DNA from: an uncultured Pseudomonadota bacterium
GTDB lineage: Bacteria > Babelota > Babeliae > Babelales > CAIQNR01
Length of the DNA: 64,000 nt
NCBI GenBank assembly: GCA_964592275.1
Contig: CAZQDJ010000001.1
Coordinates: 4,770 to 68,769 of the forward strand
Reading direction: 5' to 3'
Shown here: piece by piece, positions 134-17,403 of the stretch
How positions within the stretch are numbered: the first letter of the stretch is position 1
Layout: every line of letters begins with the position of its first letter
Position numbers and translations under genes: made by a program
Notes under the pieces: model-generated
Seen by the model: the letters and a program-made list of their open reading frames with translations, nothing else
What the model was told of the DNA's origin: nothing
The model's database searches: none

Positions 134-1077
134 CAATTTCCTTTGAACTTAGTTCCCATTGTTTCCTCCGTAATATAGAGAGGTCTATTTCTTTGTTGGT
201 CATACATTCTTCCAATGTATTCCCCTAAAAGCCACATCAACAAAAACTGAACTCCCATAAAAATATAGACAACCGTTACCAGCCATTTAAAAAGTGGATA
301 ATAAACCCCATGCGATAACGCATCCCACGCTATATATAAAAACATTAACGAGCCGGTAAGAATTACAAATATCCCCATAAAAGCCGCAATCCGCAGAGGG
401 AATAATGAAAACCCAGAAAGACCATCAAAAGCCAATTTTAAAAGCTTTGCCCAGCCGTAACCAGAAACCCCAGCTTCTCTTTCTTTGCGATCAAACGTTA
501 CATAGGCATGACTAAACCCTGTCCATGCAACAATCCCACGCAAATAACAAGCTCGCTCACGACACAGCTGAATCTGCTCAAGAACTTTTTTATCGATTAA
601 GCGAAATTCCCCCACGTGTTGAGGGATCGCAACATCAGAAACCAAATATAAAAGTTTATAATAACAAGATGCGGTAAAGTCTTTCCAAAACCCATCATTT
701 CTTGATCGCCTGCGAGCGTAAACTATGCAAGCGCCACTTTCCCATTTTGCTATCATATCTTTCACCAACGCAGGCGGATCTTGCAAGTCAGCATCAAGTG
801 AAATAACTGCATCTCCTGTTGCATTATCATAACAAGCTCGCAAAGCAATTTGATGACCAAAATTTCGCGTAAATGAAATCGCTTGAACACGTTCATCTTG
901 AGAAGCAATCTGTTTAATAATTTCCCAGGACGTATCCTTACTTCCATCATTCACAAAAATCATCTCAAAGCAATAAGAATAAGATAATTCATCACAAATT
1001 TCTGTAAGTTTTTGATATAAAAGAGCAAGGCTATCTTCATTATTATAGACAGGAATAACGAACGATATTTTTTTCAT
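133..1077 (-). CDS. family 2 glycosyltransferase, polyprenyl-phosphate sugar synthase type (ArnC/GtrB/DPM1-like)
   Basis: 314-aa ORF. N-terminal MKKISFVIPVYN, DGSKD, DADLQDPP (DxD-type), and two C-terminal TM helices (FSLFPLRIAAFMGIFVILTG, VTVVYIFMGVQFLLMWLLG). Confidence 0.8.
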   Translation of the reverse strand: MKKISFVIPVYNNEDSLALLYQKLTEICDELSYSYCFEMIFVNDGSKDTSWEIIKQIASQDERVQAISFTRNFGHQIALRACYDNATGDAVISLDADLQDPPALVKDMIAKWESGACIVYARRRSRNDGFWKDFTASCYYKLLYLVSDVAIPQHVGEFRLIDKKVLEQIQLCRERACYLRGIVAWTGFSHAYVTFDRKEREAGVSGYGWAKLLKLAFDGLSGFSLFPLRIAAFMGIFVILTGSLMFLYIAWDALSHGVYYPLFKWLVTVVYIFMGVQFLLMWLLGEYIGRMYDQQRNRPLYITEETMGTKFKGN

Positions 1078-2029: not shown

Positions 2030-2133
2030 ACATCCTTTTTGAGATTAAGCAGCATCACACTACTTGCCTTTTTTCCATCTCACATCGGTCTAGTTTTCTC
2101 TTTTTTAAGCAAAAAAGCAAAACCAAGCATAGC

Positions 2134-2176
2134 GCAGTCTCCTCCTTCGCTATTAAGCTTCGGCGTGACAGACTGC
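2134..2176 (-). terminator. candidate hairpin / weak intrinsic terminator between the GT4 C-half gene and the GT2 genes
   Basis: GCAGTCT (2134-2140) pairs with AGACTGC (2170-2176) around a 29-nt loop that contains GCTTCGGC. On the minus strand a T-rich run (ttggttttgctttttt) follows a few nt later. Confidence 0.25.
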
Positions 2177-2240
2177 CGTAGCCTCGCAAATGACACTAAC
2201 AACCTTACACAAAGGTACATGACGTCGGTGGATCTTCTTT

Positions 2241-2873
2241 TTATAACTGAGCATGATCAATAATTTTTTTCACATGCTGACGCCACGTATACTGATCAAG
2301 AGCTTTCTTACGTGCATTCATACCTATTTTTTTTCTATCAACATCAGACATACGTACACATAGTAAACATGCATTTACAAACCCCTGAATATCTAACGGA
2401 TTAACCAAAAATCCAACCTGATCTGCAATCATCAAATATTGGTCGTGTAAATCTTTACTATAAATTGCTGGACTTACAATCTCTGCTACTTGCTCAAGGT
2501 CCGATGCAATCACCGGTTTGCCCATACTCATATATTCAAAAAGCTTTGTAGGAGAACCAAAAAAACGTGTTCCATCATTATTTGATTGCGTTGGACATAA
2601 AAAAATATCGCATTGAGCAAGATATGCAGGAGCTTCTTCTGGAAGAATTTTTCCTGTAAAAGTAACGTATTCTAATAAACCCTGTTCTTGCAAAGAATAT
2701 TCAAGTGACGCACGACCTATCCCATCACCCATCAGAAGGAAATAAACATTTTTTTCAGCCGCAATAAGAACTGGGATAATTTTCTCCAAAACACTAATCC
2801 CATGCCACTGCCCAAAAGTCCCAATGAAACCGAAAGTGATTTTTTTACCTAAAGAATTCATAATTTTTAGCAC
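2241..2873 (-). CDS. GT4-family (GT-B) glycosyltransferase, C-terminal donor-binding half only
   Basis: 210-aa ORF with a GTG at 2873 and an ATG at 2861. It begins at the linker (NSLGKKITFGFIGTFGQWHG) and contains FGSPTKLFEYMSMGKPVIAS (E-x7-E-like region). No N-terminal Rossmann domain is present. The matching N-half lies at 14767..15396. Confidence 0.7.
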   Translation of the reverse strand: MLKIMNSLGKKITFGFIGTFGQWHGISVLEKIIPVLIAAEKNVYFLLMGDGIGRASLEYSLQEQGLLEYVTFTGKILPEEAPAYLAQCDIFLCPTQSNNDGTRFFGSPTKLFEYMSMGKPVIASDLEQVAEIVSPAIYSKDLHDQYLMIADQVGFLVNPLDIQGFVNACLLCVRMSDVDRKKIGMNARKKALDQYTWRQHVKKIIDHAQL

Positions 2874-3387
2874 GCATAACAGGCAAAAATGTAGAATCTT
2901 TTTCGCTCACTATTGGATTCTTGCATGGCCATTGAATGTTAAGATCAGGATCATTCCAAACAACTCCTGATTCATGAGCTGCGTTATAATATTGCGTGCA
3001 CTTATAATTCATAATGACCTCATCACTCAACACATAAAAGCCATGCGCAAATCCAGGCGGCATATATAATTGACGAGGCAGATCACTCGCAAGTACCAAA
3101 GAAAAATATTTTTGAAAGGTCGTTGAATAAGGTCTAAGATCAACTACTACATCGAAAATAGAACCTTGTAAAACGGTCACCAGTTGTCCCTGATTTTTTT
3201 GATAATGCAATCCTCTTAATACATTTTTTTTCGATACAGAAATATTATCTTGCAAAAAAGATTCTTGTATTCCCATTTCTTTATACTGATTTTCTCGCCA
3301 GCTTTCGTAAAACAACCCCCGCTCATCACAATAAATCTTTGGTTTTATAATAACCAGTCCGTCAAAACCAGTTTGAATAGTATTCAT
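2845..3387 (-). CDS. rmlC: dTDP-4-dehydrorhamnose 3,5-epimerase
   Basis: 180 aa. DERGLFYESWR, RGLHYQ and GFAHGF cupin motifs. Adjacent to rmlA and rmlB. Confidence 0.9.
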   Translation of the reverse strand: MNTIQTGFDGLVIIKPKIYCDERGLFYESWRENQYKEMGIQESFLQDNISVSKKNVLRGLHYQKNQGQLVTVLQGSIFDVVVDLRPYSTTFQKYFSLVLASDLPRQLYMPPGFAHGFYVLSDEVIMNYKCTQYYNAAHESGVVWNDPDLNIQWPCKNPIVSEKDSTFLPVMRAKNYEFFR

Positions 3388-4259
3388 TATTCAAGCAATC
3401 CTTTTAAATACTGTTTATAACGACCTTTAGGAAGCATTTCTAACAAAGTATCCAATGGAGCCTTCCCTATAAAGTTCATACGCCACGCAACTTCTTCTGG
3501 TGAAGCAATTGCAATACCTTGTCGATCTTGCACGACCTGCACATAATTTGATGCATCCAACAGTGCTCGCGGAGTTCCCACGTCAAACCATACGGTCCCT
3601 CGCCCTAAATGAGACATTGTCAGTGATTCTTGAGCAAGATAGCTTTTTAAAAGATCAACAATTTCCAACTCATTGCGCTCAGATGGCACAAGAGCTCGTG
3701 CTCGCCTTGAAACTGAACCGTCAAAGTAATAAAGCCCGGTAATGGCAAGATTAGATTTGAATGTTTTCGGCTTTTCTTCAATCGATATAATCTCTCCCTG
3801 CTTAGTTGTTACCACCACCCCATACTGACTAGGGTCTTCAACTTGATGAGTAAAAATATGTGCTCCCTCACAACCATCCATTGCTTTTGCAAGGAGCTCA
3901 CATAATCCTTGCGCATGAAAAAAGTTATCACCCAAAATCATTGCAACAGGCTGCTCATCAATAAAACGCTCTCCTAGAACAAATGCTTCCGGCAATCCAC
4001 CAGGATGCACCTGCACTTTGTAAGAAAACTTCATTCCCAAGCGGCTGCCATCTCCAAAAAGATCTTCTAATGTAAGCAGATCGCGAGCAGTGCAAATAAA
4101 AAGCACTTCCTGGATCCCAGCAAGCATCAATGTTGTCAGGGGATAATAAATAACGGGTTTATCATAGATAGGAAGCAGCTGCTTATTAGTTGCAATCGTT
4201 AATGGATACAAACGAGATCCAGTACCACCGGCTAAGACTATCCCCTTTTTTATCTTCAT
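3387..4259 (-). CDS. rmlA: glucose-1-phosphate thymidylyltransferase
   Basis: 290 aa. N-terminal KGIVLAGGTGSRLYPLT..NKQLLPIYDKPVIYYPL. Confidence 0.92.
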   Translation of the reverse strand: MKIKKGIVLAGGTGSRLYPLTIATNKQLLPIYDKPVIYYPLTTLMLAGIQEVLFICTARDLLTLEDLFGDGSRLGMKFSYKVQVHPGGLPEAFVLGERFIDEQPVAMILGDNFFHAQGLCELLAKAMDGCEGAHIFTHQVEDPSQYGVVVTTKQGEIISIEEKPKTFKSNLAITGLYYFDGSVSRRARALVPSERNELEIVDLLKSYLAQESLTMSHLGRGTVWFDVGTPRALLDASNYVQVVQDRQGIAIASPEEVAWRMNFIGKAPLDTLLEMLPKGRYKQYLKGLLE

Positions 4260-4263
4260 GTTT

Positions 4264-5298
4264 TTATCCTAATCCAATCCTTTTTCGAGCTTCAACTTTA
4301 CATCCAACTTGAGTGTAATGATCCAAATACCATTGCACCGTTTTCCGCAATCCATCTTTAAAAGATATCTGTGGTTTCCACCCTGTATCGCTTTTTAACA
4401 ATGAAGCATCTGTCGCATACCTAAAATCATGTCCTGGTCGATCAGAAACAAACGTTATCAATTCTTTGTAAGAAGTAAATAAGCTATATGGTCTCAGTTC
4501 ATCAAGCAGTTCGCATATCGTTTCAACTAAAGAAAGATTAGTTCTTTCATTATCCGATCCTACGCAATAGGAAGACCCAATGTTACCCCATTCAATAAGT
4601 GAGTACAGCGCCCGCACATGATCATCTACATACAGCCAATCCCGTATCTGTTCGCCATTTCCATACACAGGAAGGTTCTTTAATTCACACGCATTAAGAA
4701 TGGTAAGTGGAATAAGTTTTTCTGGGTACTGTTTTGGGCCATAGTTATTGGAAGAATTTACAATGATAGTCGGTAGTCCATACGTCTTGTGGTACGAGCG
4801 AACCAAATGATCAGAAGATGCTTTTGATGCCGCATAAGGAGAATTTGGTCGATAGGGCATTGACTCATTAAACTTTCCCTCAGCCCCTAGCGCTCCAAAA
4901 ACCTCATCTGTCGAAAGATGAACAAAACGAAATGAATCTTTGAGAGGAGATTTTTTATAATAACTAAGTACTGCATTGAGTACGGTATACGTCCCCATAA
5001 CATTAGCTTTTATAAAATCATCGGGACAATCTATCGAACGATCTACATGCGATTCTGCAGCCATATGAATAACAACTTCTGGTTGATGTTGAACCAAAAT
5101 TGAATCTAATGCAGGCCCATTGCAGATATCTTCTTTATAAAAAAAATGATTTTTATGATTTTTATATTCACCAAAATTTTCAAGATTTCCAGCATAGGTT
5201 AACAAGTCAATAGTGATGACTTGATGGCCTTTTTCAAGCATAGAACAAACAAAATTCGACCCTATAAACCCAGCACCACCAGTAACAAGAATTTTCAT
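4264..5298 (-). CDS. rmlB: dTDP-glucose 4,6-dehydratase
   Basis: 344 aa. MKILVTGGAGFIGSNF Rossmann motif and the YAASKASSD (YxxxK) catalytic motif. Confidence 0.92.
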   Translation of the reverse strand: MKILVTGGAGFIGSNFVCSMLEKGHQVITIDLLTYAGNLENFGEYKNHKNHFFYKEDICNGPALDSILVQHQPEVVIHMAAESHVDRSIDCPDDFIKANVMGTYTVLNAVLSYYKKSPLKDSFRFVHLSTDEVFGALGAEGKFNESMPYRPNSPYAASKASSDHLVRSYHKTYGLPTIIVNSSNNYGPKQYPEKLIPLTILNACELKNLPVYGNGEQIRDWLYVDDHVRALYSLIEWGNIGSSYCVGSDNERTNLSLVETICELLDELRPYSLFTSYKELITFVSDRPGHDFRYATDASLLKSDTGWKPQISFKDGLRKTVQWYLDHYTQVGCKVEARKRIGLG

Positions 5299-6236
5299 AA
5301 CGCATCCCTTTTTGAAGCATTTTTTATAAGCCGTATGGTGTCACCAATCCCCTTTTCTAAAGAACCCGAAAAAGAAAATCCCGTTGTTTTAAATTTATCC
5401 GAAAGCACCTCATAAGAAAGCGTGTTCATAATGGTATGTTTTACCAACGAAATTTCGCATTTTTCATTACATTCTTCAATGGCCGATACAACGTGCCGAA
5501 CGGTATGATTCCCTGTCACGATATTGTACGTTTCCCCCTCAAAAAGATTATTTTTAATAATCCACGCAAGGGCACGCACAGCATCATCCAAAGATAAATA
5601 GGGGCGCTTTTGATTAAGAGCAGTTTCCCAAATGGTCAATGGTTGCTTTACTACTGCTTGCCAACAAAATCGATTTACTGCTGTGTGAAAACGCATACCC
5701 TGAGAAACACCATAAATAGTACCAAACCGGCAAATTACACCTTTCAATCCATTACGTTCAAACATGTCTCGCAACAATATTTCTTCTTTAATTTTGCAGT
5801 CAGCATAAGGGCTTTGCGAAGATAGTTCGGTACAATATTCATCAACCGTTGCTTCTCGCGAACCATACAAACTTGTCGTTGAAGGAAAAATAAGAGGAAC
5901 CTCAAACAAAAGGCACGCTTGTGCAACAGCCTGTGTTCCCGAAAAATTGTTGTTATACATAGCCTCAGGCTTATCGGCAGTACCCGATGCATCAGTAGCA
6001 GCAGCCAAATGGATTACCACATCAGCATCTTTAAGGATTTTGCTCCAATCAACAGACTGAACTTTGCCTTCTATAAACTCATACGAAGCGGTAGTTGGTA
6101 AATTAAATAAACTGGCATAACGCTGCGTAGAAAGATCATCAATCATCACAATTGAAGGCTTATCAAAAAGATCTGGTAACTTCCTGATAAGCGCAGAACC
6201 AATATGCCCTAAAGCACCCGTTATCACACATTTCAT
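5295..6236 (-). CDS. NAD-dependent sugar epimerase/dehydratase/reductase (extended SDR)
   Basis: 313 aa. MKCVITGALGHIGSAL Rossmann motif and YADCK (YxxxK). Sits in the nucleotide-sugar cluster. Substrate unknown. Confidence 0.75.
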   Translation of the reverse strand: MKCVITGALGHIGSALIRKLPDLFDKPSIVMIDDLSTQRYASLFNLPTTASYEFIEGKVQSVDWSKILKDADVVIHLAAATDASGTADKPEAMYNNNFSGTQAVAQACLLFEVPLIFPSTTSLYGSREATVDEYCTELSSQSPYADCKIKEEILLRDMFERNGLKGVICRFGTIYGVSQGMRFHTAVNRFCWQAVVKQPLTIWETALNQKRPYLSLDDAVRALAWIIKNNLFEGETYNIVTGNHTVRHVVSAIEECNEKCEISLVKHTIMNTLSYEVLSDKFKTTGFSFSGSLEKGIGDTIRLIKNASKRDAL

Positions 6237-6673
6237 AGACTGTTCCTAAACTGTAAAAATTCTTTATAGTCGCGAATATAATCAGCTGGATCATACAACT
6301 GATCAGTCAAAACCATAAGGAGCGTCTCTTTCTCATAACTCTGCTCAGCCCAAATAGTTGCAGGCACTAATAATCCTTGCGCAGGACTTTTTAATACATA
6401 TTCTTTTTTTTCTTTACCATCATCACAGGTCACTGTGCATACACCACGCAAAGCAATCATAAGTTGGGTACATTCTTTATGAGCATGAGCACCACGCAAA
6501 CAAGGCTGATAGGCATCAACAGTAAAAACACGTTTTATAGAGAAAGGAACTTGATCTCCCGATGGGAAAATAGAAAGAATAGAATGAGGCTCAGTAAATT
6601 GCACAAAATTAATAAGGTGCACTTGCGTTACCGGTTGGTGTTTTTTGTGCATAATGTTGGATCCCAGAATCAT
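6233..6673 (-). CDS. FdtA/QdtA-like dTDP-4-keto-6-deoxyhexose 3,4-ketoisomerase (WxcM-type cupin)
   Basis: 146 aa (an alternative ATG at 6652 is also possible). RGAHAHKECTQLMIALRG cupin motif. Followed upstream by an aminotransferase and an acetyltransferase in classic fdtA-B-C context. Confidence 0.7.
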   Translation of the reverse strand: MILGSNIMHKKHQPVTQVHLINFVQFTEPHSILSIFPSGDQVPFSIKRVFTVDAYQPCLRGAHAHKECTQLMIALRGVCTVTCDDGKEKKEYVLKSPAQGLLVPATIWAEQSYEKETLLMVLTDQLYDPADYIRDYKEFLQFRNSL

Positions 6674-7799
6674 AACCCTTCCTTTTTTCTAAAATACTTT
6701 TCATAGCCTTGCTTATGGTCTCTATTTGCTCTTCAGTCACACTAAATGCACAAGGAAGGTTAATGCCTCGTTCCGAAATATCATAAGCAACCGGACTATT
6801 TTTTCGACCTTCGTCACAAGGACCATTAAAAGCTGGTAAAAATGTCAAAGGATAAAAAAATGGACGACTTGGCAATCCCATTTTTGTAAATTCATCCATC
6901 ATGTACTGCTTGGTAACTCCATGAGATCTCCCAAACACAAGTGCTGTGCACCACACTCCATTAAGAACATGCGCTGGCTCTGGATTAAAATGTAAATCAG
7001 GAACATCTGATAAATGCTCCATAAATTTTTTCCAAATCCATCGTTTTTTTTCTACCAATTCATCAATTCTTAAAAATTGAGCATAGCCAAGCGATGCTAA
7101 TAAATTTGATGGCATATATTTAAATGTCACTTCAGTATTGAAATAAGTACCAGGAGCGCGCCCGTGATCTCTTAGAAATTTACATCGCTCATAAAGCTCT
7201 TTATTATCAAGGAGCAACATACCGCCTTCACCAGTCGTAATAGTTTTTGTTCTATGAAAACTGAACACAGAACCAACTCCAAACTTGCCCGCTCTTTTTC
7301 CTTTATACATAGATCCTAAAGATTCTGCAGCGTCCTCTATTAAATAAATTCCTCGCCTGTCACAAATTTCTTGCAGAGCATCCATGTCTGGCATGTTCCC
7401 ATACAAGTCTACAACAATAACAGCCTTCGTTTTATCAGTAATTTTATCTTCAAGTTTAAGTGGATCTACACACCAATTAATAGGATCAATATCAACAAAA
7501 ACCGTTTTTGCTCGTTGATAAGTAATCGGAGCAGCACTTGCTATCCACGTACATTCAGGAACAATTACTTCATCCCCTTCTGTAACGCCTAGCCCTGCCA
7601 GTAAAAGATGTATTGCTGTGGTACAGTTTGGAGTCATTAAGGCAAATTGTCTATCATGATAAGCAGCAAATTCTGCTTCAAATTTTTCAACATAAGCATA
7701 AGCGTTCTTTCCATACCACCCGTTACGAAGAGCATCTAACACTATTTTCTCTTCAAATTCAGTGACCCAAGGGCCTGCCATGTATATTTCTTTATTCAT
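6609..7799 (-). CDS. DegT/DnrJ/EryC1/StrS-family PLP sugar aminotransferase (FdtB/QdtB-like)
   Basis: 396 aa. SFHRTKTITTGEGGML, the PLP-lysine motif of the family. Confidence 0.85.
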   Translation of the reverse strand: MNKEIYMAGPWVTEFEEKIVLDALRNGWYGKNAYAYVEKFEAEFAAYHDRQFALMTPNCTTAIHLLLAGLGVTEGDEVIVPECTWIASAAPITYQRAKTVFVDIDPINWCVDPLKLEDKITDKTKAVIVVDLYGNMPDMDALQEICDRRGIYLIEDAAESLGSMYKGKRAGKFGVGSVFSFHRTKTITTGEGGMLLLDNKELYERCKFLRDHGRAPGTYFNTEVTFKYMPSNLLASLGYAQFLRIDELVEKKRWIWKKFMEHLSDVPDLHFNPEPAHVLNGVWCTALVFGRSHGVTKQYMMDEFTKMGLPSRPFFYPLTFLPAFNGPCDEGRKNSPVAYDISERGINLPCAFSVTEEQIETISKAMKSILEKRKGYDSGIQHYAQKTPTGNASAPY

Positions 7800-7801
7800 T
7801 T

Positions 7802-8476
7802 TTATCCACAGATTTTATTTTGTTTTAAAAATTTCGCAGGCACTCCTGTCCAAATTTCTCCAGCAGGAACATCTTTCACAACAACAGCCCCTGCTCCTAT
7901 TATTGTATTTTCGCCAATTTTTAAACGTGGAAGTACTGTAGCATGTGCTGCTACCCAAGAATAATTCCCCACTTCAACTCGCCCGCATAAAACCGCTCCT
8001 GGAGCTATTTCAACGCCTTCCCCCAGTTGATCATGATGTTCAACAACGCTACGCGTATTAAGAATGCACTGACGCCCTATTTTTGCTCGCGCATTAATAA
8101 TTGTGCCTTTCATAATCTGTGCACCTTCCCCAATCTCAACATCAGCATCAATCAAAGCTGATTGCGCACAAAAACTTACGGGAGTTAATCCTTTAGCAAC
8201 CAAATAATCATGCAACTGACACCGAACAAAGCCATACGGGTTTCCTATCGCTATAACAAACCCTATTTGAGAAGAATCACGTCCAATCAACCACTTCTCA
8301 AAAAAAGCTTTACCTTGCAGTAATGTAATATTTTGAAAAGGAGAAAGAAGCCCTGGAGTATCATCAAAAATAATATCAAAATCAGCACCAAGCATTTTAA
8401 TAATGGGATGTATCACCATTGCTTGATCACCACCACCCCAACAGATCAACTGCTTCTTAAAATTATTTATTTTCAT
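7802..8476 (-). CDS. hexapeptide-repeat sugar N-acetyltransferase (NeuD/PglD/FdtC-like)
   Basis: 224 aa. N-terminal Rossmann-like part followed by left-handed beta-helix repeats (IGEGAQI..., IGRQCIL..., LGEGVEIAPGAVL..., IGENTIIGAGAVV). Confidence 0.8.
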   Translation of the reverse strand: MKINNFKKQLICWGGGDQAMVIHPIIKMLGADFDIIFDDTPGLLSPFQNITLLQGKAFFEKWLIGRDSSQIGFVIAIGNPYGFVRCQLHDYLVAKGLTPVSFCAQSALIDADVEIGEGAQIMKGTIINARAKIGRQCILNTRSVVEHHDQLGEGVEIAPGAVLCGRVEVGNYSWVAAHATVLPRLKIGENTIIGAGAVVVKDVPAGEIWTGVPAKFLKQNKICG

Positions 8477-8489
8477 ACTGTTTCACAAC

Positions 8490-9221
8490 TTAAACTCGCT
8501 TTAAATAGCCATTACGCGTAAATGAATTTATCGCTTTTTTGTTGTATTCATTGTCTCTAGAAAATCGAATTTTTTCTTGCTCCAAAAATCCTTCCACAGC
8601 TGTTCTAGGATTATTTCCACGCCCCCATGGACGAGGCCTATGCGCCTGAGCTGGAATCTCTTCTACGACCGTATCTGAAATTACAAGATAGTTATTAAGA
8701 GAAACCAATTCTTTATATGCTTGTAGCTCATTAAAAACATGCTCATGAGTATGATTACTATCCAAAATAACCATTACTTTATCAGTAGGAGCAATTAATT
8801 TTTTAATCTGCGCAATACTACTTTCATCAGTAGAAGACCCTTCAATAAGGTGTATTCTTTTTGAAAAAGCGTAGTTCATTATTTGATCAATATTTTTCTG
8901 CGGCAATACCATATCAATACCTATCACCTTTCCCTTACCAACCATTTCAAGCACTGATGCATAAAGAGCTATGCTACCACCCCAAGCAATACCCGTTTCA
9001 ATAATAACATCAGGTTTTGTGTCCCAGATAATCTCTTGAATAATAACTATATCTTCTGGCATCTGAATTACCGGCAAACCAAGCCAGGTCCAATTATAGG
9101 CATAATTATATTGATCAGATTTTGTGATAAATTTTAATGCAAGATCGTTCAATTCCTGGTCTTGAAAGGCTTTCTGAATATTGGCTTGCTTTTGTTGATT
9201 AAACTCATCTCTATCAAACAT
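8490..9221 (-). CDS. CmcI / cephalosporin-hydroxylase-family class I methyltransferase (sugar O-methyltransferase-like)
   Basis: 243 aa. YNWTWLGLPVIQMPEDIVIIQEIIWDTKPDVIIETGIAWGGS matches the CmcI-family pattern. Confidence 0.7.
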   Translation of the reverse strand: MFDRDEFNQQKQANIQKAFQDQELNDLALKFITKSDQYNYAYNWTWLGLPVIQMPEDIVIIQEIIWDTKPDVIIETGIAWGGSIALYASVLEMVGKGKVIGIDMVLPQKNIDQIMNYAFSKRIHLIEGSSTDESSIAQIKKLIAPTDKVMVILDSNHTHEHVFNELQAYKELVSLNNYLVISDTVVEEIPAQAHRPRPWGRGNNPRTAVEGFLEQEKIRFSRDNEYNKKAINSFTRNGYLKRV

Positions 9222-9247
9222 GTCTTACTCCCACATTTTTATAATTC

Positions 9248-10360
9248 TTATAACAGTCTTTGTAATAATTCAGGATACATAGGAAGCGTTAAAATCTTTT
9301 TTACACATTCTTCAGTAACAGAAAGACCTTCAGCAGCTATTCGGATTTTATCTTGATAACCAGGATGCACATGCGCCGGATACTGATAATGAACACCAGC
9401 TTCAATACCATAGCTAGCTAATTTTTCTTTTAGCTCATCCCGAAAATCAGACTGCACCACATATAAATGAAACACATGCTCCGTTTCTTTTCTTACAAGT
9501 GGATGCACTACTTCTTTAAAAAATGGATTTGCTCGGTACTGATCGGCAATGGCTCTTCTTTTTGCATTGTCTTGATCTAAGTAACGCAACTTTACTCGTA
9601 ATATCGCAGCTTGGAGTTCATCAAGACGAGAAACCGCTCCCACTTCTTGTCCCAACCGTTTTTCATCCCAGCCATACTGACGAAGACGAATCAATCTATC
9701 TTTTAAAACTGTATCATTCGTAATTACTCCACCAGCATCACCAATAGCTCCAAGGTTTTTAGTCGGATAAAAGCTAAAACAGCCTGCATCACCAAACGTA
9801 CCAACCTTTTTACCCTGATATAAAGCTCCATGGGCCTGCGCACAATCTTCAATAACTTTAAGATTATGTAGTTTTGCAAGTTCCATTATTGGCTTCATAT
9901 CACAAGATTGGCCATACAAATGAACAGGAATAATCGCTTTTGTTTTAAGAGTAATCGCTTTTTTAATTTTTTCAGGATCGATGGTGTAATAATCGGGCTC
10001 TATATCAACCAACACCGGAGTTGCTCCGGCAATAACAATCGCTGACACAGTGGCAAGAGCAGTATGAGACACCGTAATTACTTCATCCCCTGGACCAATA
10101 TCATAGGCCTTTAAAGTAAGTGATAAAGCATCAGTACCACTTCCTACTCCAATTGCATGCGCTACTCCATGATACCGGGCAAACTCTTCCTGAAATGCTT
10201 CTACTTCTGGCCCCAAAATATAAGGGCCATTTTCACATACTCGTTTTATCGCTTCCAAAATTTCTTCATGATAGCTATGAAACTGCGCGGGAGGAAAGCC
10301 ACAACACAACTTTTCTAAACTTGTTCCAGCACTTTTACTTCTGGAATAAATGTGATCCAT
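9248..10360 (-). CDS. DegT/DnrJ/EryC1/StrS-family PLP sugar aminotransferase (second copy)
   Basis: 370 aa. GVGSGTDAL and [18 protein letters not shown] (PLP lysine). Confidence 0.85.
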
Positions 10361-11547
10361 TTTCCACCTTTTTTAGTAAAATTTTCTTCTTTTTCAAAAA
10401 TCTCTTGTGCATGATTCCATGCAAATAATACTGCATAATCAGGAGTATCATCGGTAAATTCTTGATAGGGCTTAATAGGAATATGCATTCCAGGACTAAA
10501 CTTACCCTGCTTTAAAGGAGTCGTATCACTAATATAGTCTATGCTCTCTTTCCCAATACCACAGTAATTCAAAATTGTGGTGCTCTTTGATGTTGCAGCA
10601 TAGCCAACTACTCGTTTACCGGCAGCTTTTAACTCTTTTAAAAGAATAACTAATTCTTGCCTGCTTTTTTCACAAGCATCTCTAAAATGAATAAAGGTCT
10701 CTACTTTATCAAGACCAAGGATTTTTTCGATTTCTAACTGTTTTTTAACAGAATCTTGAATAGTTCTTTGTCCTTTTAGACAAAGATAATAACGCATTGA
10801 TCCGCCATGAGTTATTTGAGACTCAACATGAAAAAGTTCTAACCCATAAGGTTCAAATATCTGCTGAACCGAAAGAAGACTAAAAATATACACATGCTCA
10901 TCGTAAATTTGATCATAGGAAATCTTTTGAATCACATCACCTAAATAAGGATCTTCAAATATAAAAACTCCCTCTTTTTTTAGTAATGAAACAACTCCTT
11001 TTGCCACAGAAGCAAGATCAGGGATATGACACATTACATTAGAAGCGCAAATAATATCTGCTTGCCCGTAATCCTTTAAAATTTCAGCCGCTGTTTGCTC
11101 ACCAAAAAATGCCACTTTTGTAGCAACCCCTTGCTCACGAGCAATGTGAGCCACATTTTCAGAAGGCTCTACTCCTAAATGATTAATACCTTCTTGAGCA
11201 AAATACTTGAGCATAATCCCATCATTACTTCCCAATTCAACAACAAATGCTTTTTGAGTATCAGTAATGAACTGTTGTCTATAATTTTCAGCCATTGTTT
11301 TAAAATGCTCAGCCATTTTTTTTGAAGTGCCAGAAAAAAAAGCGTAATTTTCGTGAAACATAAGCTGAGGATCTGGTTGTTCAACAAGTTGAAATGTCTT
11401 ACAAGACGCACAAAACATCGTTTCTAAATCAAAAAAATATTCTTCTTTAAAAGAATCCTGTTTCAAAAAATTATTAGCTATAGGCATCTTTCCAAAAGAG
11501 TTGATTACTTGTGTTTTATTACTGCATATTCTACAAACCATTATCAC
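10315..11547 (-). CDS. NDP-hexose C-methyltransferase-like SAM-dependent methyltransferase
   Basis: 410 aa. N-terminal Cys4 zinc ribbon (CRICSN...CASCKT), SAM motif VVELGSNDG, and a C-terminal C-methyltransferase-type domain (TylCIII-like architecture). Confidence 0.7.
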
Positions 11548-12670
11548 TCCTTAAGCCTTTTATTATCTTTGGTGGCATTTTCAAATCTTCTATACCAGAC
11601 CGATATGCATGTATTTTAGAATCTTTAATTAAATTATTTACCAATTCAAATTCTACGTAATAGGAAGAACTTTTTTCGTAAAGAAAGCATTCTCCTGATA
11701 AACGAGATCTCTTTATTGCATTAAAAGCCTTTTTTATCTGTTTTAATCCAACCAATACACAAACAGGAGCAAACTGCTTTATTAATCGCTTTACCGAAAA
11801 ACCAGTTACTCTTTGATGAGGAAAAATACAATTAAAATGATATTCAATAAATTTTTGTATAATAATCTTACTTTTAAAATCAGCAGTTTTTGAATCTAAC
11901 TGCAAGGCCTGCTCTAATGCATTCTTTATCCCTAATTCCATTAATCGCGCATTTTTTTCAAAATTTTCATCGAGCAACCATTTTTCATGATATTTTGCTC
12001 CTGTAGAAGTCTTCCTTTGCTCTCTCCATGAAAAAGGGACCTTTAAATATTTTCCCTTGCCAGAAAGAAGGGCGAGAATAGTAACCATATTTTCAAGAAA
12101 TTTTCCACAAAAATCATTGGCATAAATCATGCTCTGCTCTAAAACAGAATCCAGAACCGCTGTTCTGAAAAGTGAATGAAATGTAGAAGTATAATTCACA
12201 AGATACGAATCAATTCTTTCAAGAGAATTTTCTTGAGCAATCGATCTTGGATGATAAGAATCACCGGTATAGTACCAATCAAGATCAGTACCAACATAGG
12301 TGTATCCATATTGATATCCGGCAACAAAGGAGTAATCGGGATTATCGCACAAAAAAAATGCTCCTTCACGAAGCGTCTGAACTGAAAAAAAATCGTCCAT
12401 AGAAGCAAGAAGAACATAGGGAGTACAAACTTGCTTAACAACCAATCCTACCTTTTCTGTAAATGTTGTTGCATTGTCATACTCGAATATAATCGGAAAA
12501 AACAAATCACTTTGAAACTCTTTCACGATCATACGCATCTGAATTCTTTCTTCAGAAGAACTAGAATCAGCGATGAAAATCCTGCCCTTAAACCCTGCTG
12601 TTTTGTAATAATCAAGGGCCCTTTTCAAATACTGAGAAGTATCTCTAGACAGTAAAATTATTGTTATCAT
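11531..12670 (-). CDS. putative GT-A-like glycosyltransferase, uncharacterised
   Basis: 379 aa. The N-terminus ITIILLSRDTSQYLKRALDYY...IFIADSS resembles GT2-like domains seen in polysaccharide loci. The assignment is weak. Confidence 0.4.
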   Translation of the reverse strand: MITIILLSRDTSQYLKRALDYYKTAGFKGRIFIADSSSSEERIQMRMIVKEFQSDLFFPIIFEYDNATTFTEKVGLVVKQVCTPYVLLASMDDFFSVQTLREGAFFLCDNPDYSFVAGYQYGYTYVGTDLDWYYTGDSYHPRSIAQENSLERIDSYLVNYTSTFHSLFRTAVLDSVLEQSMIYANDFCGKFLENMVTILALLSGKGKYLKVPFSWREQRKTSTGAKYHEKWLLDENFEKNARLMELGIKNALEQALQLDSKTADFKSKIIIQKFIEYHFNCIFPHQRVTGFSVKRLIKQFAPVCVLVGLKQIKKAFNAIKRSRLSGECFLYEKSSSYYVEFELVNNLIKDSKIHAYRSGIEDLKMPPKIIKGLRSDNGL

Positions 12671-12679
12671 GTGTATCCT

Positions 12680-13945
12680 TTAAGAAGTATGCCATTTCAA
12701 AAAAGGTTTTATTTTCCCTTTTTTATTTTGTAGAAAAGCTGACCTATCAGTACTTTTTTCCACAGAATGCTCACTCATAACAAAATTGAGAATATTTTTT
12801 TCAGAAAATAAAGTTGCTTGTTCAAAATCAGGTAAAGTACCATCATATCCAAGGTCAAAAACCTCAAGACCAACCATAACTACTCCCTCCTGAAAAATAT
12901 GCTCTGGAATCGTGCAAACTAATGTTTCTTTAGCATCTAGCGCAACAGCTTCATAATCTCGCACAACCCTAGAACTCGTAAAAAGCAAATCTTCTTCTTC
13001 ATTATAAAAAGAGAGAATAAATAAGGCTGTTTTATCACTATCAAACCTCCTGAACCCTATGTGAACTTTAAGCGGATCAGAAAGAAAAAACCGTTCTTGT
13101 TCATCACCATCAGTAGAAAGAATTTTAAGAGAGTCAAGAGCAAGCAAAGAACCTAACATAAGTCCGACATCACCCCACACCACTGAAGAAGAAGCAATCT
13201 TTTGTGTTCCCAAGTGAGCAGCCACTGCCTGAAGAGGGCCTCCTATAAATTCTTCACGCCCTTGCTTTAAAACAAGCACTCGAGAACATAATTTTTTTAC
13301 AGCCACAAGATTATGTGAAACAAATAAAATCGTTCTGCCAGCTTTTCCCAAGTCACTCATTGATTGAATACATTTTTTTTCAAACTCATAGTCACCCACT
13401 GCTAACACTTCATCTATCAAAAGAATTTCTGGTCGCAAGTGCGCCGCTACTGAAAAGGCAAGCCGTAACCGCATCCCTGATGAATATTTTTTTACCGGGA
13501 TATCAAGAAACTGTTCTACCCCTGCAAATGACACAATTTCATCGAAATACTTACTTATTTCCCAACGCTTCATCCCAAGAATAACTCCACTCAGGTAAAT
13601 ATTTTCACGGCCACTTAGTTCTCCATGAAACCCAGTTCCCACCTCTAAAAGGCTCGCTACGCGTCCACGAATTGTCACTTTGCCAGAGGTAGGTGCGGTT
13701 ATTCTGCTCAAAATTTTTAATAAAGTACTTTTACCAGAACCATTTTTTCCAATAACTCCCAGTACTTCTCCTTCTTGAACTTCAAAAGAAACATCTTTTA
13801 AGGCATAGAAAGATTTTTTAGGTAACGATGGTTTAAATAAAGAACTCACTTGAGAAAACAAAAGCTCGCGAAAGCTCTGATCCTTATCAGCTTGAGTTCC
13901 GAGTTGATAGATTTTTGAAAGATTTTCAACAATTATGCGCTTCAT
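12680..13945 (-). CDS. wzt: O-antigen/teichoic-acid-type ABC exporter ATPase with C-terminal extension
   Basis: 421 aa. Walker A GKNGSGKST, signature YSSGMRLRL, Walker B ILLIDEVLAVGD. The roughly 170-aa C-terminal domain is typical of Wzt carbohydrate-binding modules. Confidence 0.85.
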   Translation of the reverse strand: MKRIIVENLSKIYQLGTQADKDQSFRELLFSQVSSLFKPSLPKKSFYALKDVSFEVQEGEVLGVIGKNGSGKSTLLKILSRITAPTSGKVTIRGRVASLLEVGTGFHGELSGRENIYLSGVILGMKRWEISKYFDEIVSFAGVEQFLDIPVKKYSSGMRLRLAFSVAAHLRPEILLIDEVLAVGDYEFEKKCIQSMSDLGKAGRTILFVSHNLVAVKKLCSRVLVLKQGREEFIGGPLQAVAAHLGTQKIASSSVVWGDVGLMLGSLLALDSLKILSTDGDEQERFFLSDPLKVHIGFRRFDSDKTALFILSFYNEEEDLLFTSSRVVRDYEAVALDAKETLVCTIPEHIFQEGVVMVGLEVFDLGYDGTLPDFEQATLFSEKNILNFVMSEHSVEKSTDRSAFLQNKKGKIKPFLKWHTS

Positions 13946-13954
13946 ACATAAACC

Positions 13955-14770
13955 TTAAATGATATCTGCAAACTGTTCTTCTGCTTTTTTAAAGTACAGA
14001 ATACTCACAATAGAAATGCCCACTGTCATTGCCAACGAAACAACCGCATACTCACCATACAACGGCTCATTCAACAAACAAAAACGAAACCCATTAATAA
14101 TTCCAGACAATGGATTCAGTGCCAAAAAAATACGTAGTTGTTGCGGAACCATACAAAAATTAAAAGCAACAGGAGTGCAATAAATCCCTAACTGGGCAAC
14201 AAACGGTAAAATGTGCCTGAAATCTCGATAGCGAACTATAAGCGAAGCGAATAAAAGACTAACAGATAGAGATAGTACCGCTAACCAAATACCAAACAAT
14301 GGTAAGAAAAAAATAGTAAGTGAAGGGAAATACTGATAGCGAAAAATGGCAATCAACAAGTAACACAAAAATGAAATGGAAAAATCAACGCCAGCACACA
14401 GCAATCGACTTGAAGGAAGCATGATCCGCGGAAAGTAAACCTTAGAAACTAACTGTTCATTTGCTAAAAAACTCATACTTGCATGCGTTAACATGTCAGC
14501 AAAAAATTGCCAGGCAAGCATCGCAGAAAAAATCACCAATGAGTACGGAGTATTTCCACTTGATATTCCCGCAATTTTACTAAAAATAACCGTGAAAACT
14601 GCCACTGTTAAAAGCGGCCTCACTACAACCCATAACACTCCAATAACTGTTTGCTTATATTGAACGAGAATATCTCGCCACCCTAAAAAGAAGAAAACTT
14701 CCCGATAATCCCAAAGCTCACCAAACACTACTTTCCATGATTTTTTAGGAGTGATAATTATTTCATTCAT
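13955..14770 (-). CDS. wzm: ABC-2 type polysaccharide exporter permease
   Basis: About 271 aa counted from the ATG at 14770, which overlaps the stop of the upstream ORF as ATGA. Six predicted TM segments. Adjacent to wzt. Confidence 0.8.
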   Translation of the reverse strand: MNEIIITPKKSWKVVFGELWDYREVFFFLGWRDILVQYKQTVIGVLWVVVRPLLTVAVFTVIFSKIAGISSGNTPYSLVIFSAMLAWQFFADMLTHASMSFLANEQLVSKVYFPRIMLPSSRLLCAGVDFSISFLCYLLIAIFRYQYFPSLTIFFLPLFGIWLAVLSLSVSLLFASLIVRYRDFRHILPFVAQLGIYCTPVAFNFCMVPQQLRIFLALNPLSGIINGFRFCLLNEPLYGEYAVVSLAMTVGISIVSILYFKKAEEQFADII

Positions 14771-15396
14771 TGTGCACACTCTCTTTTTATTCGTTTCGGA
14801 TCAAACTGTTCCGTATCAACTCCATTGGGATTTACCAAGATTTTTTTTGCGGGTACACCCCAACTAATAAGCTCATTTTTTAGAATTTCTGAAACTACCA
14901 CAAGATAATCTGCTTGTCTTATGGTATATCGTTCAATCCACGACAAAGGCTTTATCAAAAACGTTAATCTTTTTTTAGGAACCCATTCAAATGCGGTCCA
15001 TACCTCTGAACAGTTATATTCAAGAATTAATTTCTTTCTGTACCAACGCGCAAGCAACACACCAGTCAAGTTAAGAAGACTATAACGTTGATAGATACAG
15101 GCAATAGGATACTCATGAATAAGTTTTTTAGTTTGAAAAAAGAAAAAAAAAGATGATAAAAAACAGTTCATCTTCCAGCATAAGAATCGCAACCATTGAG
15201 GATTTGAAAGCTTTACCAATGTTTCTAATTTCACATTCTTTAATGCTGAGTCCAAACACGAAGAAGCGCACACAACTCGATACCCAAGTTCATGAAATCC
15301 TTTGATAACTCCCAGCGTATGAGTTACTGAACCACCTACGATTAATTCTTCATCCCAAATATCGGTGCGCAGATACAAAATATATTTGTCGCTCAT
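14767..15396 (-). CDS. GT4-family (GT-B) glycosyltransferase, N-terminal acceptor half only
   Basis: 209 aa. GGSVTHTLGVIKGFHELGYRV and ADYLVVVSE...ILVNPNGVDTEQFDP are N-domain motifs of GT4 enzymes. The ORF stops right after the linker, and no C-domain follows. Confidence 0.7.
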   Translation of the reverse strand: MSDKYILYLRTDIWDEELIVGGSVTHTLGVIKGFHELGYRVVCASSCLDSALKNVKLETLVKLSNPQWLRFLCWKMNCFLSSFFFFFQTKKLIHEYPIACIYQRYSLLNLTGVLLARWYRKKLILEYNCSEVWTAFEWVPKKRLTFLIKPLSWIERYTIRQADYLVVVSEILKNELISWGVPAKKILVNPNGVDTEQFDPKRIKRECAQ

Positions 15397-17348
15397 TCAA
15401 GCGCCCCTGTTGCTAAAAGATTTTGAAGAGCCCATAACTGTGGAGAATAATTACCATAAGAAAGCGTGTTATTTTTTACTATTTTCTCAATTTCTGCGCC
15501 CTTAAAAAGAAACTCTAAGTCATGCCGCTTGGTAGATAACAAATCAGAAAAATAAGCTTTAAAGTACGATCCATTTTTGAACCAATGAGCTGCAGGAGTT
15601 CCAAAACCAACTTTTTTACGATAAATAATATCGTTTGGTAAAATACCTTCACATGCCTTTTTAAGAATGTATTTTGTTATCCCATTTTTGTATTTCAGTG
15701 CAGTTGAAACCTGAAGAGCAAATTCAACATGCTCATGATCCAAGAATGGAACGCGTCCTTCAACTGACGTTGCCATGGTCATTTTATCAACACGCATCAG
15801 TAACAACTCAGGAAGGCGTTGTTTAAGTTCTAAGTAGGTCATGGATTGTAAAAAATCACCTTGCGGATTTTTTACATAAAACTTTTTAAGATGATATTCA
15901 ACTATTGCATAACTATCAGATGTTTGTTGTAACTCTGGGTATATTTTTCTAATGACGTCATCCTCGCTTTGTTTCTCGTCAAAAAAAAGTAATTGACGCT
16001 TCCAATCATCTGAAAAAGCAATCGCTTCCCCCCAAAATAAATGCTGCCCAGAAGCCCACCTATCAACAACAAACTGCTGATTTTTTTTATAAGGAAAAAG
16101 CTGTGCAGCAATCCACGCCCCTGCTTTTTTGATTGGTTGAGGTATGCCCACGGTTGGTTGATAATAGCGGCGATAAACATCAAGGTACTGAGCATAGCTT
16201 TGATACCCACAATAGAGCTCATCAGATCCTTCGCCCACTTGAACAACGGCAACCCCTGAATCTCTCAGTAATTTTGAAACATAATACAAGGGAATGCAGA
16301 CAGAATCGGCTAATGGCTCATCTTGGTGGTACACCATTTTTTGGAAAAATTCGAATGCTTCTTTTTCAGAAATCGTAATTTCATAATGCTCGGTATTGAA
16401 TAATTTTGAAACTTTACGCGCCCAGGCAACTTCGCTGTATTCAGGACCATCAGAAAATGAAACGTTAAACGTCTTCACTCGGTCAGTAAATCGAGACATC
16501 AATGCAGTGATTAAACTTGAATCGACTCCTCCTGATAAAAAGACTCCAAAAGAAACATCCGATATCATTCGTTTTTGTACTGCATCAGTCAGCAGAGTGC
16601 GAATTTGAGCAATACAAAACTGTTCATCAGCTAAATCTTTTTCTGGATACATAATTTTCGGGACAAGCGGATTATACCATTCATGAAAAGTTATTTCTTT
16701 TGCCGTATCCATTTTCATATACATACCAGCAGGGAGCTTATACATCCCTTGATATAACGTGTAAGGAGCCGGAGTTACCAGAAACGTAAGATAATGATAC
16801 AACGCCTGGTGATTAAGTTTTTTATTCAGCCATGGCAAGTGCCACAACGCTTTAATTTCTGAAGCAAAACTAAAATAGCCCCCTTCTAAAGAAAAATAAA
16901 ATGGCTTAATTCCAATACGATCACGAACACAATACCACTCATTGGTCAGCAAATTACCTAATACAGCCGCAAACATACCTTCTAACTTATCAAGGCACGC
17001 AATTCCCCATTGTTTAAAAGCGTAGAGAAATACTTCTGTATCGGTCTGAGAAGTGAACTGGTGACCATATCCTTCAAGCTCTGTACGTAATTTTTTGTAA
17101 TTATAAATTTCACCATTGAACATAATGACAGTCGTTCTCTGTGCATCGAACATCGGCTGCGCGCCAGCATGCGAAAGATCAATGATACTCAATCGACGAT
17201 AGACAAAGGCTGCTTTATGTTTTTCAGAAACCCAAATACCATGTCCGTCAGGCCCCCGATGAGCAATAGTGGTATGCATTTTTTCAAGAACTTCTTGGTC
17301 AACTGCAAACTGTCCGCCACATGAAATATACCCTGCAAATCCACACAT
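15393..17348 (-). CDS. asparagine synthase (glutamine-hydrolysing)-type amidotransferase
   Basis: About 651 aa from the ATG at 17348, which gives the MCGFAGY N-terminal nucleophile Cys. FLSGGVDSS PP-loop. The context suggests sugar or uronate amidation. Confidence 0.85.
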   Translation of the reverse strand: MCGFAGYISCGGQFAVDQEVLEKMHTTIAHRGPDGHGIWVSEKHKAAFVYRRLSIIDLSHAGAQPMFDAQRTTVIMFNGEIYNYKKLRTELEGYGHQFTSQTDTEVFLYAFKQWGIACLDKLEGMFAAVLGNLLTNEWYCVRDRIGIKPFYFSLEGGYFSFASEIKALWHLPWLNKKLNHQALYHYLTFLVTPAPYTLYQGMYKLPAGMYMKMDTAKEITFHEWYNPLVPKIMYPEKDLADEQFCIAQIRTLLTDAVQKRMISDVSFGVFLSGGVDSSLITALMSRFTDRVKTFNVSFSDGPEYSEVAWARKVSKLFNTEHYEITISEKEAFEFFQKMVYHQDEPLADSVCIPLYYVSKLLRDSGVAVVQVGEGSDELYCGYQSYAQYLDVYRRYYQPTVGIPQPIKKAGAWIAAQLFPYKKNQQFVVDRWASGQHLFWGEAIAFSDDWKRQLLFFDEKQSEDDVIRKIYPELQQTSDSYAIVEYHLKKFYVKNPQGDFLQSMTYLELKQRLPELLLMRVDKMTMATSVEGRVPFLDHEHVEFALQVSTALKYKNGITKYILKKACEGILPNDIIYRKKVGFGTPAAHWFKNGSYFKAYFSDLLSTKRHDLEFLFKGAEIEKIVKNNTLSYGNYSPQLWALQNLLATGALE

Positions 17349-17403
17349 ACTACACACCTTTTTTAGTCTCTTTATCTATTAGTTCGCTAACTCGGCCTTG
17401 TGT

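Follow-up and report, generated by a model that had tools for sequence, protein, structure and literature searches.

The window analyzed here, a 64-kb stretch of contig CAZQDJ010000001.1, carries on its minus strand a co-directional array of genes, running from position 23.6 kb or so down to position 133, in which the two domains of a glycosyltransferase of family 4 (GT4) are encoded by separate open reading frames (ORFs), hereafter called the N-half and the C-half (table 1). The N-half (209 amino acids [aa]; C-terminal end ...ILVNPNGVDTEQFDPKRIKRECAQ, or ...NPNGVDTEQFDPKRIKRECAQ, up to the stop in the ORF list) matches the Pfam model Glyco_transf_4 over positions 1-170 of 170 (E = 4e-19; 69.7 bits for a cut-off of 28.5). 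The C-half, whose first residues are MLKIMNSLGKKITFGFIGTFGQWHG... and whose protein opens (MLKI)MNSLGKKITFGFIGTFGQWHG and contains FGSPTKLFEYMSMGKPVIAS, matches Glycos_transf_1 over positions 13-170 of 172 (E = 1.7e-16, 60.7 bits) and Glyco_trans_1_4 (E = 3.6e-22, 79.6 bits). The N-half is a complete GT4 N-domain and the C-half a complete GT4 C-domain, and what is a single polypeptide in GT4 enzymes is found here as two ORFs with 11.9 kb between them. The C-half is 210 aa long if the GTG at 2873 is used, but the ATG at 2861 is the likelier start, because the 100% identical database protein P0208 has 206 aa. Exactly 13 ORFs, all on the same strand and running from wzm/wzt to rmlC, separate the two halves; the N-half start is overlapped by the end of an asnB-like gene, its TGA shares an ATGA with the wzm ATG, and the C-half start overlaps the 3' end of rmlC. 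Searches of the 64-kb window by tblastn revealed no further GT4 N- or C-domain related to this family and no full-length paralog. A hydropathy scan found no transmembrane (TM)-like segment in the N-half, and a promoter and terminator scan of the window returned sites fewer than, or no more than, those in shuffled sequences.

Joined head to tail, the two halves give a chain of 419 aa that aligns with the 425-aa GT4 protein P0001 in a single BLASTP high-scoring segment pair (52% identity, E = 2e-144) with a gap of one residue at the junction, where aligning it to full-length homologs with MAFFT reveals no net indel. The 120 best database hits each cover 95-100% of the joined query, and all but one, a partial record of 621 aa, have 401-442 aa. 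An earlier interpretation made from the letters alone (the sequence-only reading) had described N-only and C-only GT4 ORFs on one strand 11.9 kb apart, had expected them to form a normal collinear GT4 of about 415 aa, and had reported the 13 intervening genes with the ATGA and rmlC overlaps; the ORF list, the Pfam matches, and the alignments bear it out on all these points. Given a multiple sequence alignment, AlphaFold2 (AF2) folds the joined chain into a two-Rossmann GT-B structure (predicted local distance difference test [pLDDT] 94.5, predicted TM-score 0.92); the model obtained without an alignment (pLDDT 36.7) is unusable. Model confidence is lowest at the junction, which falls between helices 200-206 and 208-217; residues 406-417 make up a terminal helix. 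By Foldseek, the model of the fused chain matches the full-length retaining GT4 enzymes MshA, BshA, PimB', GlgM, and HepE, which share this fold (TM-score 0.70-0.75, E-value down to 2e-18) but are single chains with only 14-19% identity to it. PimB' is also the best match in the Protein Data Bank (PDB) by sequence. The best NCBIfam match, TIGR04063 (stp3), is far below its cut-off, and the PDB sequence matches are marginal, too weak to point to a substrate.

By searching with the N-half alone, we identified about 65 clusters of N-domain-only proteins (187-231 aa, 44-86% identity), many of them on contigs of 0.1-1 Mb. Every member stops just past the linker motif NPNGVD..F, and 24 columns are invariant. 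The C-half retrieved about 43 clusters of C-domain-only proteins (185-222 aa, 46-100% identity), each beginning just ahead of FGFIGTFG.WHG; here too 24 columns are invariant, as is DG..FFGSPTKLFEY, the donor-binding motif common to C-halves and full-length homologs. A genome scan located the family in metagenome-assembled genomes (MAGs) titled Candidatus Babeliales, Dependentiae, or Babelota, plus evidently mislabelled records. Across a clade of Dependentiae (Babeliales)-like bacteria, stand-alone halves are conserved as the rule rather than the exception. Among the Dependentiae-type contigs (L006-L009, L015, L020-L022, L024, L028, L029, L032), several bear the titles "uncultured Pseudomonadota" or "Alteromonas naphthalenivorans," which are probably taxonomic mislabels in the public records.

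Four pairs of halves on a same contig and one composite pair were fixed by coordinates, and seven more were inferred from contigs of equal size. The distance between the halves and the content of the DNA between them vary. Against the 11.9 kb and 13 co-directional genes of the window, the closest relative (L005 and L040, a composite of two assemblies) has about 12.7 kb, with the window cassette plus one extra gene. In ERZ3460577 NODE_1 the distance is about 10.9 kb, three cassette genes are inverted, and the C-half is coupled to an epimerase gene instead of rmlC; on the P0122 contig it is 9.7 kb and the cassette lies in part on the opposite strand. In L043 (8.4 kb), an opposite-strand gene and a 210-bp spacer precede the C-half, which must thus have its own expression. 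Both halves are under purifying selection. The ratio of nonsynonymous to synonymous substitution rates (dN/dS), estimated by the Nei-Gojobori method against the closest relatives, for which dS is unsaturated, is 0.104 for the N-half (dS 0.60, vs. L005) and 0.169 for the C-half (dS 0.54, vs. L040), within the 0.03-0.22 range of the neighboring genes, which argues for maintained genes and not relics. Pseudogene features are likewise lacking, the domain models being covered in full and the conserved columns intact.

A tblastn survey of 39 loci, later 46, distinguished three locus states. In state S0, found in more distant relatives, asnB is followed by a full-length GT4, which we call A, and in six loci A is followed by B, a protein of about 865-930 aa. 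B has 10-13 TM-like segments within its first ~480 residues, where a weak match to Polysacc_synt (Wzx-type) is also seen, and its C-terminal portion is a GT4; the GT4 genes of these loci have no wzm/wzt between them. In state S1 (L009, L010, L011, L020, L031, L044, L045, and L007/L032), the order is asnB, the N-half, optionally a methyltransferase or other small genes, wzm, wzt, a few genes, and then a full-length GT4 of about 430 aa, called S. The L031 contig begins inside the N-half, and L007 and L032 are two contigs of one MAG, probably one locus. The N-half and wzm/wzt are present in all S-type loci examined (8/8), with asnB wherever the contig reaches it, and no other GT4 domain was found within ±10 kb in the S1 loci checked. 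State S2, that of the window, its closest relatives, and two or more other lineages, has the S1 layout but with a dTDP-sugar cassette ahead of a stand-alone C-half. Downstream neighbors (epimerase, GT2, acetyltransferase, aminotransferase, methyltransferase) are common to the C-half and the S gene, which thus hold the same position in the locus. Upstream, the order asnB, N-half, wzm is tight and conserved, often with translational coupling through overlapping stop and start codons; the asnB-like gene is the conserved upstream neighbor of both the N-half and A, the adjacency being found in about 30 loci. An arrangement of another kind is seen in L023, where three full-length GT4 paralogs in a row precede wzm/wzt; this may be an intermediate or an alternative layout, and the clustering of the C-domains of its first and third copies hints at gene conversion. 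In L045, two tandem asnB-like genes of 649 aa each stand upstream of the N-half. The union of a flippase-like domain and a glycosyltransferase on one chain, as in B, is unusual in itself.

The two halves differ in their affinities. Mean identity of the N-halves is 41.8% to the S N-domains, 45.1% to A, and 55.9% among themselves; that of the C-halves is 54.4% to the S C-domains, 45.9% to A, and 57.0% among themselves. Neighbor-joining (NJ) trees place 41 of the 42 N-halves in one clade inside the A-type proteins and keep the S N-domains apart in a clade of their own; on the C side, C-halves are interspersed with S C-domains within a single clade. Over 200 bootstraps (numpy NJ implementation), the S N-domains are an exclusive clade in 172, the C-halves are separable from the S C-domains in none, and the two together are exclusive in 119. 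A clade of halves and S without A-type members is recovered in 1/200 replicates for N-domains and 136/200 for C-domains. BLAST bit scores place the N-halves nearer A than B in 42/42 cases and the S N-domains nearer B in 16/16. Similarly, when an S N-domain was used to query 1.8 billion representatives with HMMER, the nearest proteins after one S-type sequence were B-type fusions of 846-927 aa (51-52% identity), which rank above A-type proteins and free N-halves. The N-half and C-domain trees display the same major groups, indicating that each N-half travels with its C-bearing gene, and the N-domain of S is missing in at least three parts of the C-domain tree (the window group, the P0237 group, and the P0238 group beside the S-type P0100). 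Judged by these sequence affinities, the halves probably do not descend from one ancestral gene, the N-half coming from paralog A and the C-half from S. The simplest reading is that the N-half would be a remnant of A, S the GT4 module of B, and the free C-half an S that lost its own N-domain. Two other ideas were considered and dropped. A stand-alone S-type N-domain, the expected intermediate of an insertion into S, was represented in the HMMER search only by fragments of 140-145 aa, and P0197, P0198, and P0204 proved to be truncated full-length genes. Expression of a free C-domain from an internal start in S-type genes is at odds with a linker methionine that is not conserved across S-type sequences.

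Comparisons between relatives place both halves at breaks in conservation. Relative to L006/L002, identity is 83-84% for the fused dehydrogenase-oxidoreductase gene upstream of asnB, 74% for asnB, and 74-79% for the N-half; past the N-half it falls to 64-66% for wzm, 57-58% for wzt, 33-37% for the next genes, and 34-43% for the cassette genes, whose order is changed. In the more distant L008 (asnB 70%, N-half 57%), a window-type cassette is present at 62-78%. The closest relative is collinear with the window up to the end of the C-half, after which L040 has 4.9 kb of extra genes before the ortholog of the first downstream GT2 gene (GT2a). The halves are conserved and the DNA between them is not, so that they would delimit the segment exchanged among lineages; the half-genes coincide with the edges of this segment as functional genes rather than as relics. 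The recent insertion of a mobile element was rejected as an explanation, since we detected no notable flanking direct or inverted repeats, no tRNA, and no shift in G+C content across 1-22 kb, a comparison that the sequence-only reading had suggested.

We propose the following scenario. The ancestral locus would have contained asnB, the full-length GT4 A, and B, a fusion of a polytopic membrane domain to a GT4. A wzm/wzt ABC exporter may then have replaced the C-domain of A together with the membrane (Wzx-like) domain of B, leaving the N-half and the 430-aa S, a state that sister loci still show. In the window lineage and at least two others, a dTDP-sugar biosynthesis cassette would next have replaced the N-domain of S, leaving the free C-half. 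A GT-B C-domain alone binds the nucleotide sugar, without the acceptor half of the active-site cleft. The N-half could provide the acceptor side and the C-half the nucleotide-sugar side, the two associating noncovalently into a retaining GT-B enzyme that would act in a surface-glycan pathway dependent on the ABC transporter Wzm/Wzt. We propose this trans-assembled enzyme because the C-half is under purifying selection, because no unpaired GT4 N-domain other than the N-half was found in the 64-kb window or within 10 kb in relatives, and because N- and C-domains taken from different GT-B parents and produced separately form active heterodimers (PMC10937113). Alg13, similarly, needs Alg14 (PMC8993221). 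Trans-assembly and the order of events are what we infer from domains, conservation, selection, co-location, and differing affinities that are observed. We give this explanation as a whole, that is a conserved pair of half-proteins from two paralogs, the locus history, and the trans-assembled GT-B enzyme, about an even chance of being right. A broader version, which we put forward only tentatively, is that of a natural mix-and-match GT-B system, in which the acceptor domain of one paralog would pair with the donor domain of another; this would account for the repeated loss of the S N-domain and make the two conserved halves the homologous anchors for the exchange of export and sugar-biosynthesis cassettes among Dependentiae lineages. 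If true, the pair would be a GT4 example of a split enzyme and a natural case of cross-paralog domain complementation, a principle now exploited in glycosyltransferase engineering, with pieces of an enzyme delimiting the hypervariable part of a surface-glycan locus. The locus also offers a concrete way to test how surface glycans diversify in the Dependentiae, a phylum of uncultured bacteria associated with protists, and it draws attention to a conserved orphan GT4 N-domain.

Several observations weigh against this proposal. The N-half is equally conserved in loci whose only nearby C-domain is covalently joined to an N-domain of its own: between the S1 loci L009 and L011, it has 82% aa identity and a dN/dS of 0.22, the N-domain of the S gene itself having a dN/dS of 0.29. 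An N-half kept where no free C-half is nearby cannot owe its function only to a free C-half, and in S1 it has either a partner elsewhere in the genome or an extra role tied to asnB and wzm. It is mainly for this reason that our confidence in the heterodimer does not go beyond an even one. Furthermore, the trees are NJ trees with moderate deep support, N-halves and A being grouped to the exclusion of S in only 24/200 bootstraps, and the C-domains, tried as a test of A versus B origin, were uninformative, since they do not tell A from B (bit scores AA 196, AB 185, BB 183). The Polysacc_synt match of B is under Pfam's curated cut-off. The AF2 model had a fused chain as its input and an alignment that included full-length homologs, and is no test of trans-assembly for this N/C pair. 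Finally, all data are metagenomic contigs, and some pairings rest on contig size match alone.

The sequence-only reading had offered two accounts of the locus. Part of the first, a two-piece enzyme, has gained strength from the clade-wide occurrence of the halves; the same finding, which that reading had itself named as refuting, speaks against a recent event, and the layout is no insertion particular to this genome. The other part, a single ancestral gene cut in two, is not favored. In the form in which we considered it, a GT4 next to asnB would have been cut at its linker by the inserted cassette, full-length S being a secondary re-fusion of a C-half to a B-like N-domain. The halves are perfectly collinear, lacking no residue at the junction, and the N-half is A-derived, both as expected from such an event; the C-halves and S C-domains nest among the C-domains of A and B, the S N-domains lying outside the diversity of A, and repeated re-fusions after a split are documented in the Alg14/13 family (PMC8993221). 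Because the C-domains do not discriminate A from B, it is possible that S is a chimera, with a foreign N-domain fused to an old A C-domain, in which case the single-gene picture would be correct. We nevertheless consider it unlikely. The N-halves and C-halves side with different paralogs, as described above, and sister loci in which the N-half is already free retain S at full length. S-type genes are scattered in the C-domain tree, yet their N-domains form one clade (172/200) with a topology matching that of their C-domains, so that re-fusion would imply that the same N-domain was captured independently several times or spread laterally. Moreover, the S N-domains are nearest the neighboring paralog B, which makes S look like an intact GT4 module of B, and no locus with an A-like free C-half was found among those surveyed. 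The descent of the halves from two different paralogs, which we prefer, also speaks for another view, namely that both are functional but not parts of one enzyme. The N-half might have a role of its own, for example as a noncatalytic acceptor- or lipid-binding partner or as a scaffold for AsnB, Wzm/Wzt, or the S-type GT, and the C-half might work with a different N-domain protein whose gene lies elsewhere. Purifying selection on the N-half in loci without a nearby free C-half and the tight, overlapping asnB, N-half, wzm order agree with this view. Nonetheless, the N-half is present at every free-C-half locus whose DNA reaches it, and a search within 10 kb and in the 64-kb window brought up no second unpaired GT4 N-domain; the N-domain of S was lost only in genomes that carry a free N-half; and GT-B halves of different parents can assemble (PMC10937113). 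Separate roles thus seem rather doubtful to us, though worth keeping in mind.

The second account regarded the halves as relics at the junctions of a cassette swap. That they mark the boundaries of the cassette is supported by the drop in identity at the N-half/wzm junction and the break in synteny after the C-half between relatives, but not as decaying remains: neither shows the decay that was looked for, the ORFs are intact in divergent clusters (about 65 and about 43), 24 columns being invariant in each family, the donor-binding motif does not vary, and dN/dS values of 0.10-0.22 are like those of neighboring genes (0.10 and 0.17 for the window N-half and C-half). Nonfunctional relics are hence very improbable. 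An artefact, either a chimeric contig or a frameshifted full-length gene, could be feared from the metagenomic source, but its probability is close to nil. The N-half/wzm junction is matched at 100% in a separate Logan assembly (possibly from the same sample), the rmlC/C-half junction recurs in the relatives L040 and L041, the same architecture comes from many samples and assemblers, and wzm follows the N-half stop with no C-domain in another frame.

To our knowledge, the Alg14/Alg13-EpsE/EpsF lineage, in which the genes are adjacent, accounts for essentially all known natural split GT-B enzymes, and we know of no split GT4 in ABC-transporter-dependent O-polysaccharide systems. Our literature search found no described split GT4 and nothing relevant on glycan loci of Dependentiae. 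Alg14/Alg13, the eukaryotic UDP-GlcNAc transferase, and bacterial and archaeal EpsE/EpsF (e.g., Cps14F/G-type) have their N- and C-Rossmann domains on two polypeptides, as here, with a split kept over long evolutionary distances and coexisting fused and split forms (PMC8993221). The analogy with Alg13/Alg14 drawn from the sequence alone therefore holds, but the present halves match GT4 Pfam models, with no Alg14 or Glyco_tran_28_C (MurG-related) match at E ≤ 0.01; their genes are 8.4-12.7 kb apart (five loci) around a variable cassette; the N-half lacks a TM-like segment in the hydropathy scan and is also found without a free C-half; and the halves appear to derive from two different paralogs. 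The split GT4 pair would thus resemble Alg14/Alg13 and EpsE/EpsF in mechanism without being a member of that family. The behavior proposed for the A-derived N-half and S-derived C-half is that of engineered "mix and match" heterodimeric GT-B enzymes (Bretagne et al. 2024, PMC10937113), which are laboratory constructs in a GT1-family chimera background, whereas the present pair is natural, of the GT4 family, and known from sequence. As for the locus, ABC-transporter-dependent O-polysaccharide loci (with WbdA/B/C-type GT4) similarly have wzm/wzt beside GT4, GT2, methyltransferase, and nucleotide-sugar genes in one co-directional array; in contrast, wzm/wzt give way in more distant relatives to a fusion of a polytopic membrane domain with a GT4.

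The genes of the array are listed in table 1, with the ORFs of relatives mentioned above. A Wzm-type ABC-2 permease and a Wzt-type ATPase, as in ABC-transporter glycan loci, follow the N-half. Residues 31-236 of the ATPase match NCBIfam TagH and galactan Wzt/RfbE-type models below their equivalog cut-offs, and it has a C-terminal extension of about 180 aa; a Wzt_C match, no more than weak, is seen in the L002 ortholog. The 379-aa protein encoded next has no Pfam match. As listed, the second aminotransferase ORF and the FdtA-like ORF overlap by 65 nt (6609-6673); the true FdtA start is probably a downstream ATG, because FdtA of a relative is called at 129 aa.

Table 1. Positions of the half-genes, of their neighbors in the window, and of related ORFs in other loci.
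Feature	Position	Strand	Evidence or remark
N-half, stand-alone GT4 N-terminal (acceptor-side) Rossmann domain	14767..15396	-	Pfam, homolog clusters, dN/dS
C-half, stand-alone GT4 C-terminal (donor-side) Rossmann domain	2241..2873	-	Pfam, homolog clusters, dN/dS
Fusion of zinc-type alcohol dehydrogenase and GFO/IDH/MocA oxidoreductase domains (ADH-GFO), 725 aa	18857-21034	-	
Polytopic membrane protein, 468 aa	17506-18912	-	7 TM-like segments (crude scan)
AsnB-like glutamine amidotransferase	15393..17357	-	Pfam Asn_synthase 1.7e-90 and GATase_7
wzm-like ABC-2 permease	13955..14770	-	PF01061 ABC2_membrane on identical gene in L001
wzt-like ABC ATPase, C-terminal extension, 421 aa	12680..13945	-	PF00005 on identical L001 gene
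379-aa protein, N-terminal TIGR04440-type glycosyltransferase domain	11531..12670	-	NCBIfam TIGR04440 1.3e-35, above cut-off
Sugar C-methyltransferase	10315..11547	-	Pfam Methyltransf_13/23/14
DegT/DnrJ/EryC1-type sugar aminotransferase	9248..10360	-	PF01041 on L040 ortholog, 95% aa identity
CmcI/rhamnosyl O-methyltransferase-family methyltransferase	8490..9221	-	Pfam RMNT_CmcI 2.4e-69
Hexapeptide-repeat acyltransferase	7802..8476	-	Pfam Hexapep 5.5e-18
Second DegT-type aminotransferase	6609..7799	-	PF01041 on L040 ortholog, 97% aa identity
FdtA/WxcM-like sugar 3,4-ketoisomerase	6233..6673	-	Pfam FdtA 2.5e-39
NAD-dependent epimerase/reductase	5295..6236	-	Pfam Epimerase 1.4e-33
rmlB-like dTDP-glucose 4,6-dehydratase	4264..5298	-	Epimerase and GDP_Man_Dehyd on L040 ortholog, 89% identity
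rmlA-like nucleotidyltransferase	3387..4259	-	PF00483 on L040 ortholog, 78% identity
rmlC-like dTDP-sugar isomerase/epimerase	2845..3387	-	PF00908 on L040 ortholog, 77% identity
Spacer after C-half, 210 bp	2030-2240	-	
Two tandem paralogous GT2 genes, ArnC/PgfS-like, downstream of C-half	1091-2029 and 133-1077	-	NCBIfam
B fusion ORFs (proteins P0327-P0333)	L012:12059-14776		
	L014:11246-13975		
	L018:9437-12226		
	L019:15754-18540	-	
	L022:11372-13966		
	L028:5661-8402		
Stand-alone N-half in S1 relatives	L044:4864-5529		
	L045:5766-6452		
Two tandem asnB-like genes	L045:1380-5769		upstream of N-half
Three full-length GT4 paralogs in a row, then wzm/wzt	L023:9926-19819		

In the spacer after the C-half, a stretch of 55-65 nt (GTTTTGCTTTTTTGCTTAAAAAAGAGAAAACTAGACCGATGTGAGATGGAAAAAAGGC...) is 98-100% identical to the relative L040 (region 10635-10854), the flanking genes being about 83% identical to those of L040; it has no Rfam match and its predicted fold is unremarkable (z = -0.9). 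A 55-65-nt repeat seen downstream of the C-half in L040 was dismissed as an artefact, the sequence being duplicated on both sides of a scaffold gap. Upstream of asnB, the 468-aa membrane protein, for which neither Pfam nor NCBIfam gave a match, is the least conserved of the array (75% identity and dN/dS 0.15 vs. L005), and a ManC-like nucleotidyltransferase stands in its place in some relatives. The ADH-GFO fusion that precedes it is kept upstream of asnB in nearly all related loci and also occurs in Nitrospinaceae, Marinifilum, Saccharibacteria, and Desulfobacterales contigs (L034, L036-L038). At the other end of the array, the NCBIfam matches of the tandem GT2 pair, PgfS (2.4e-66) and ArnC-type (3.1e-56), are both below cut-off, and orthologs lie downstream of the C-half or of the S-type gene in relatives. 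Aligned in register, these two genes (314 and 312 aa) are offset by 952 bp, and they give rise to the only notable direct repeats of the region (families D1-D3).

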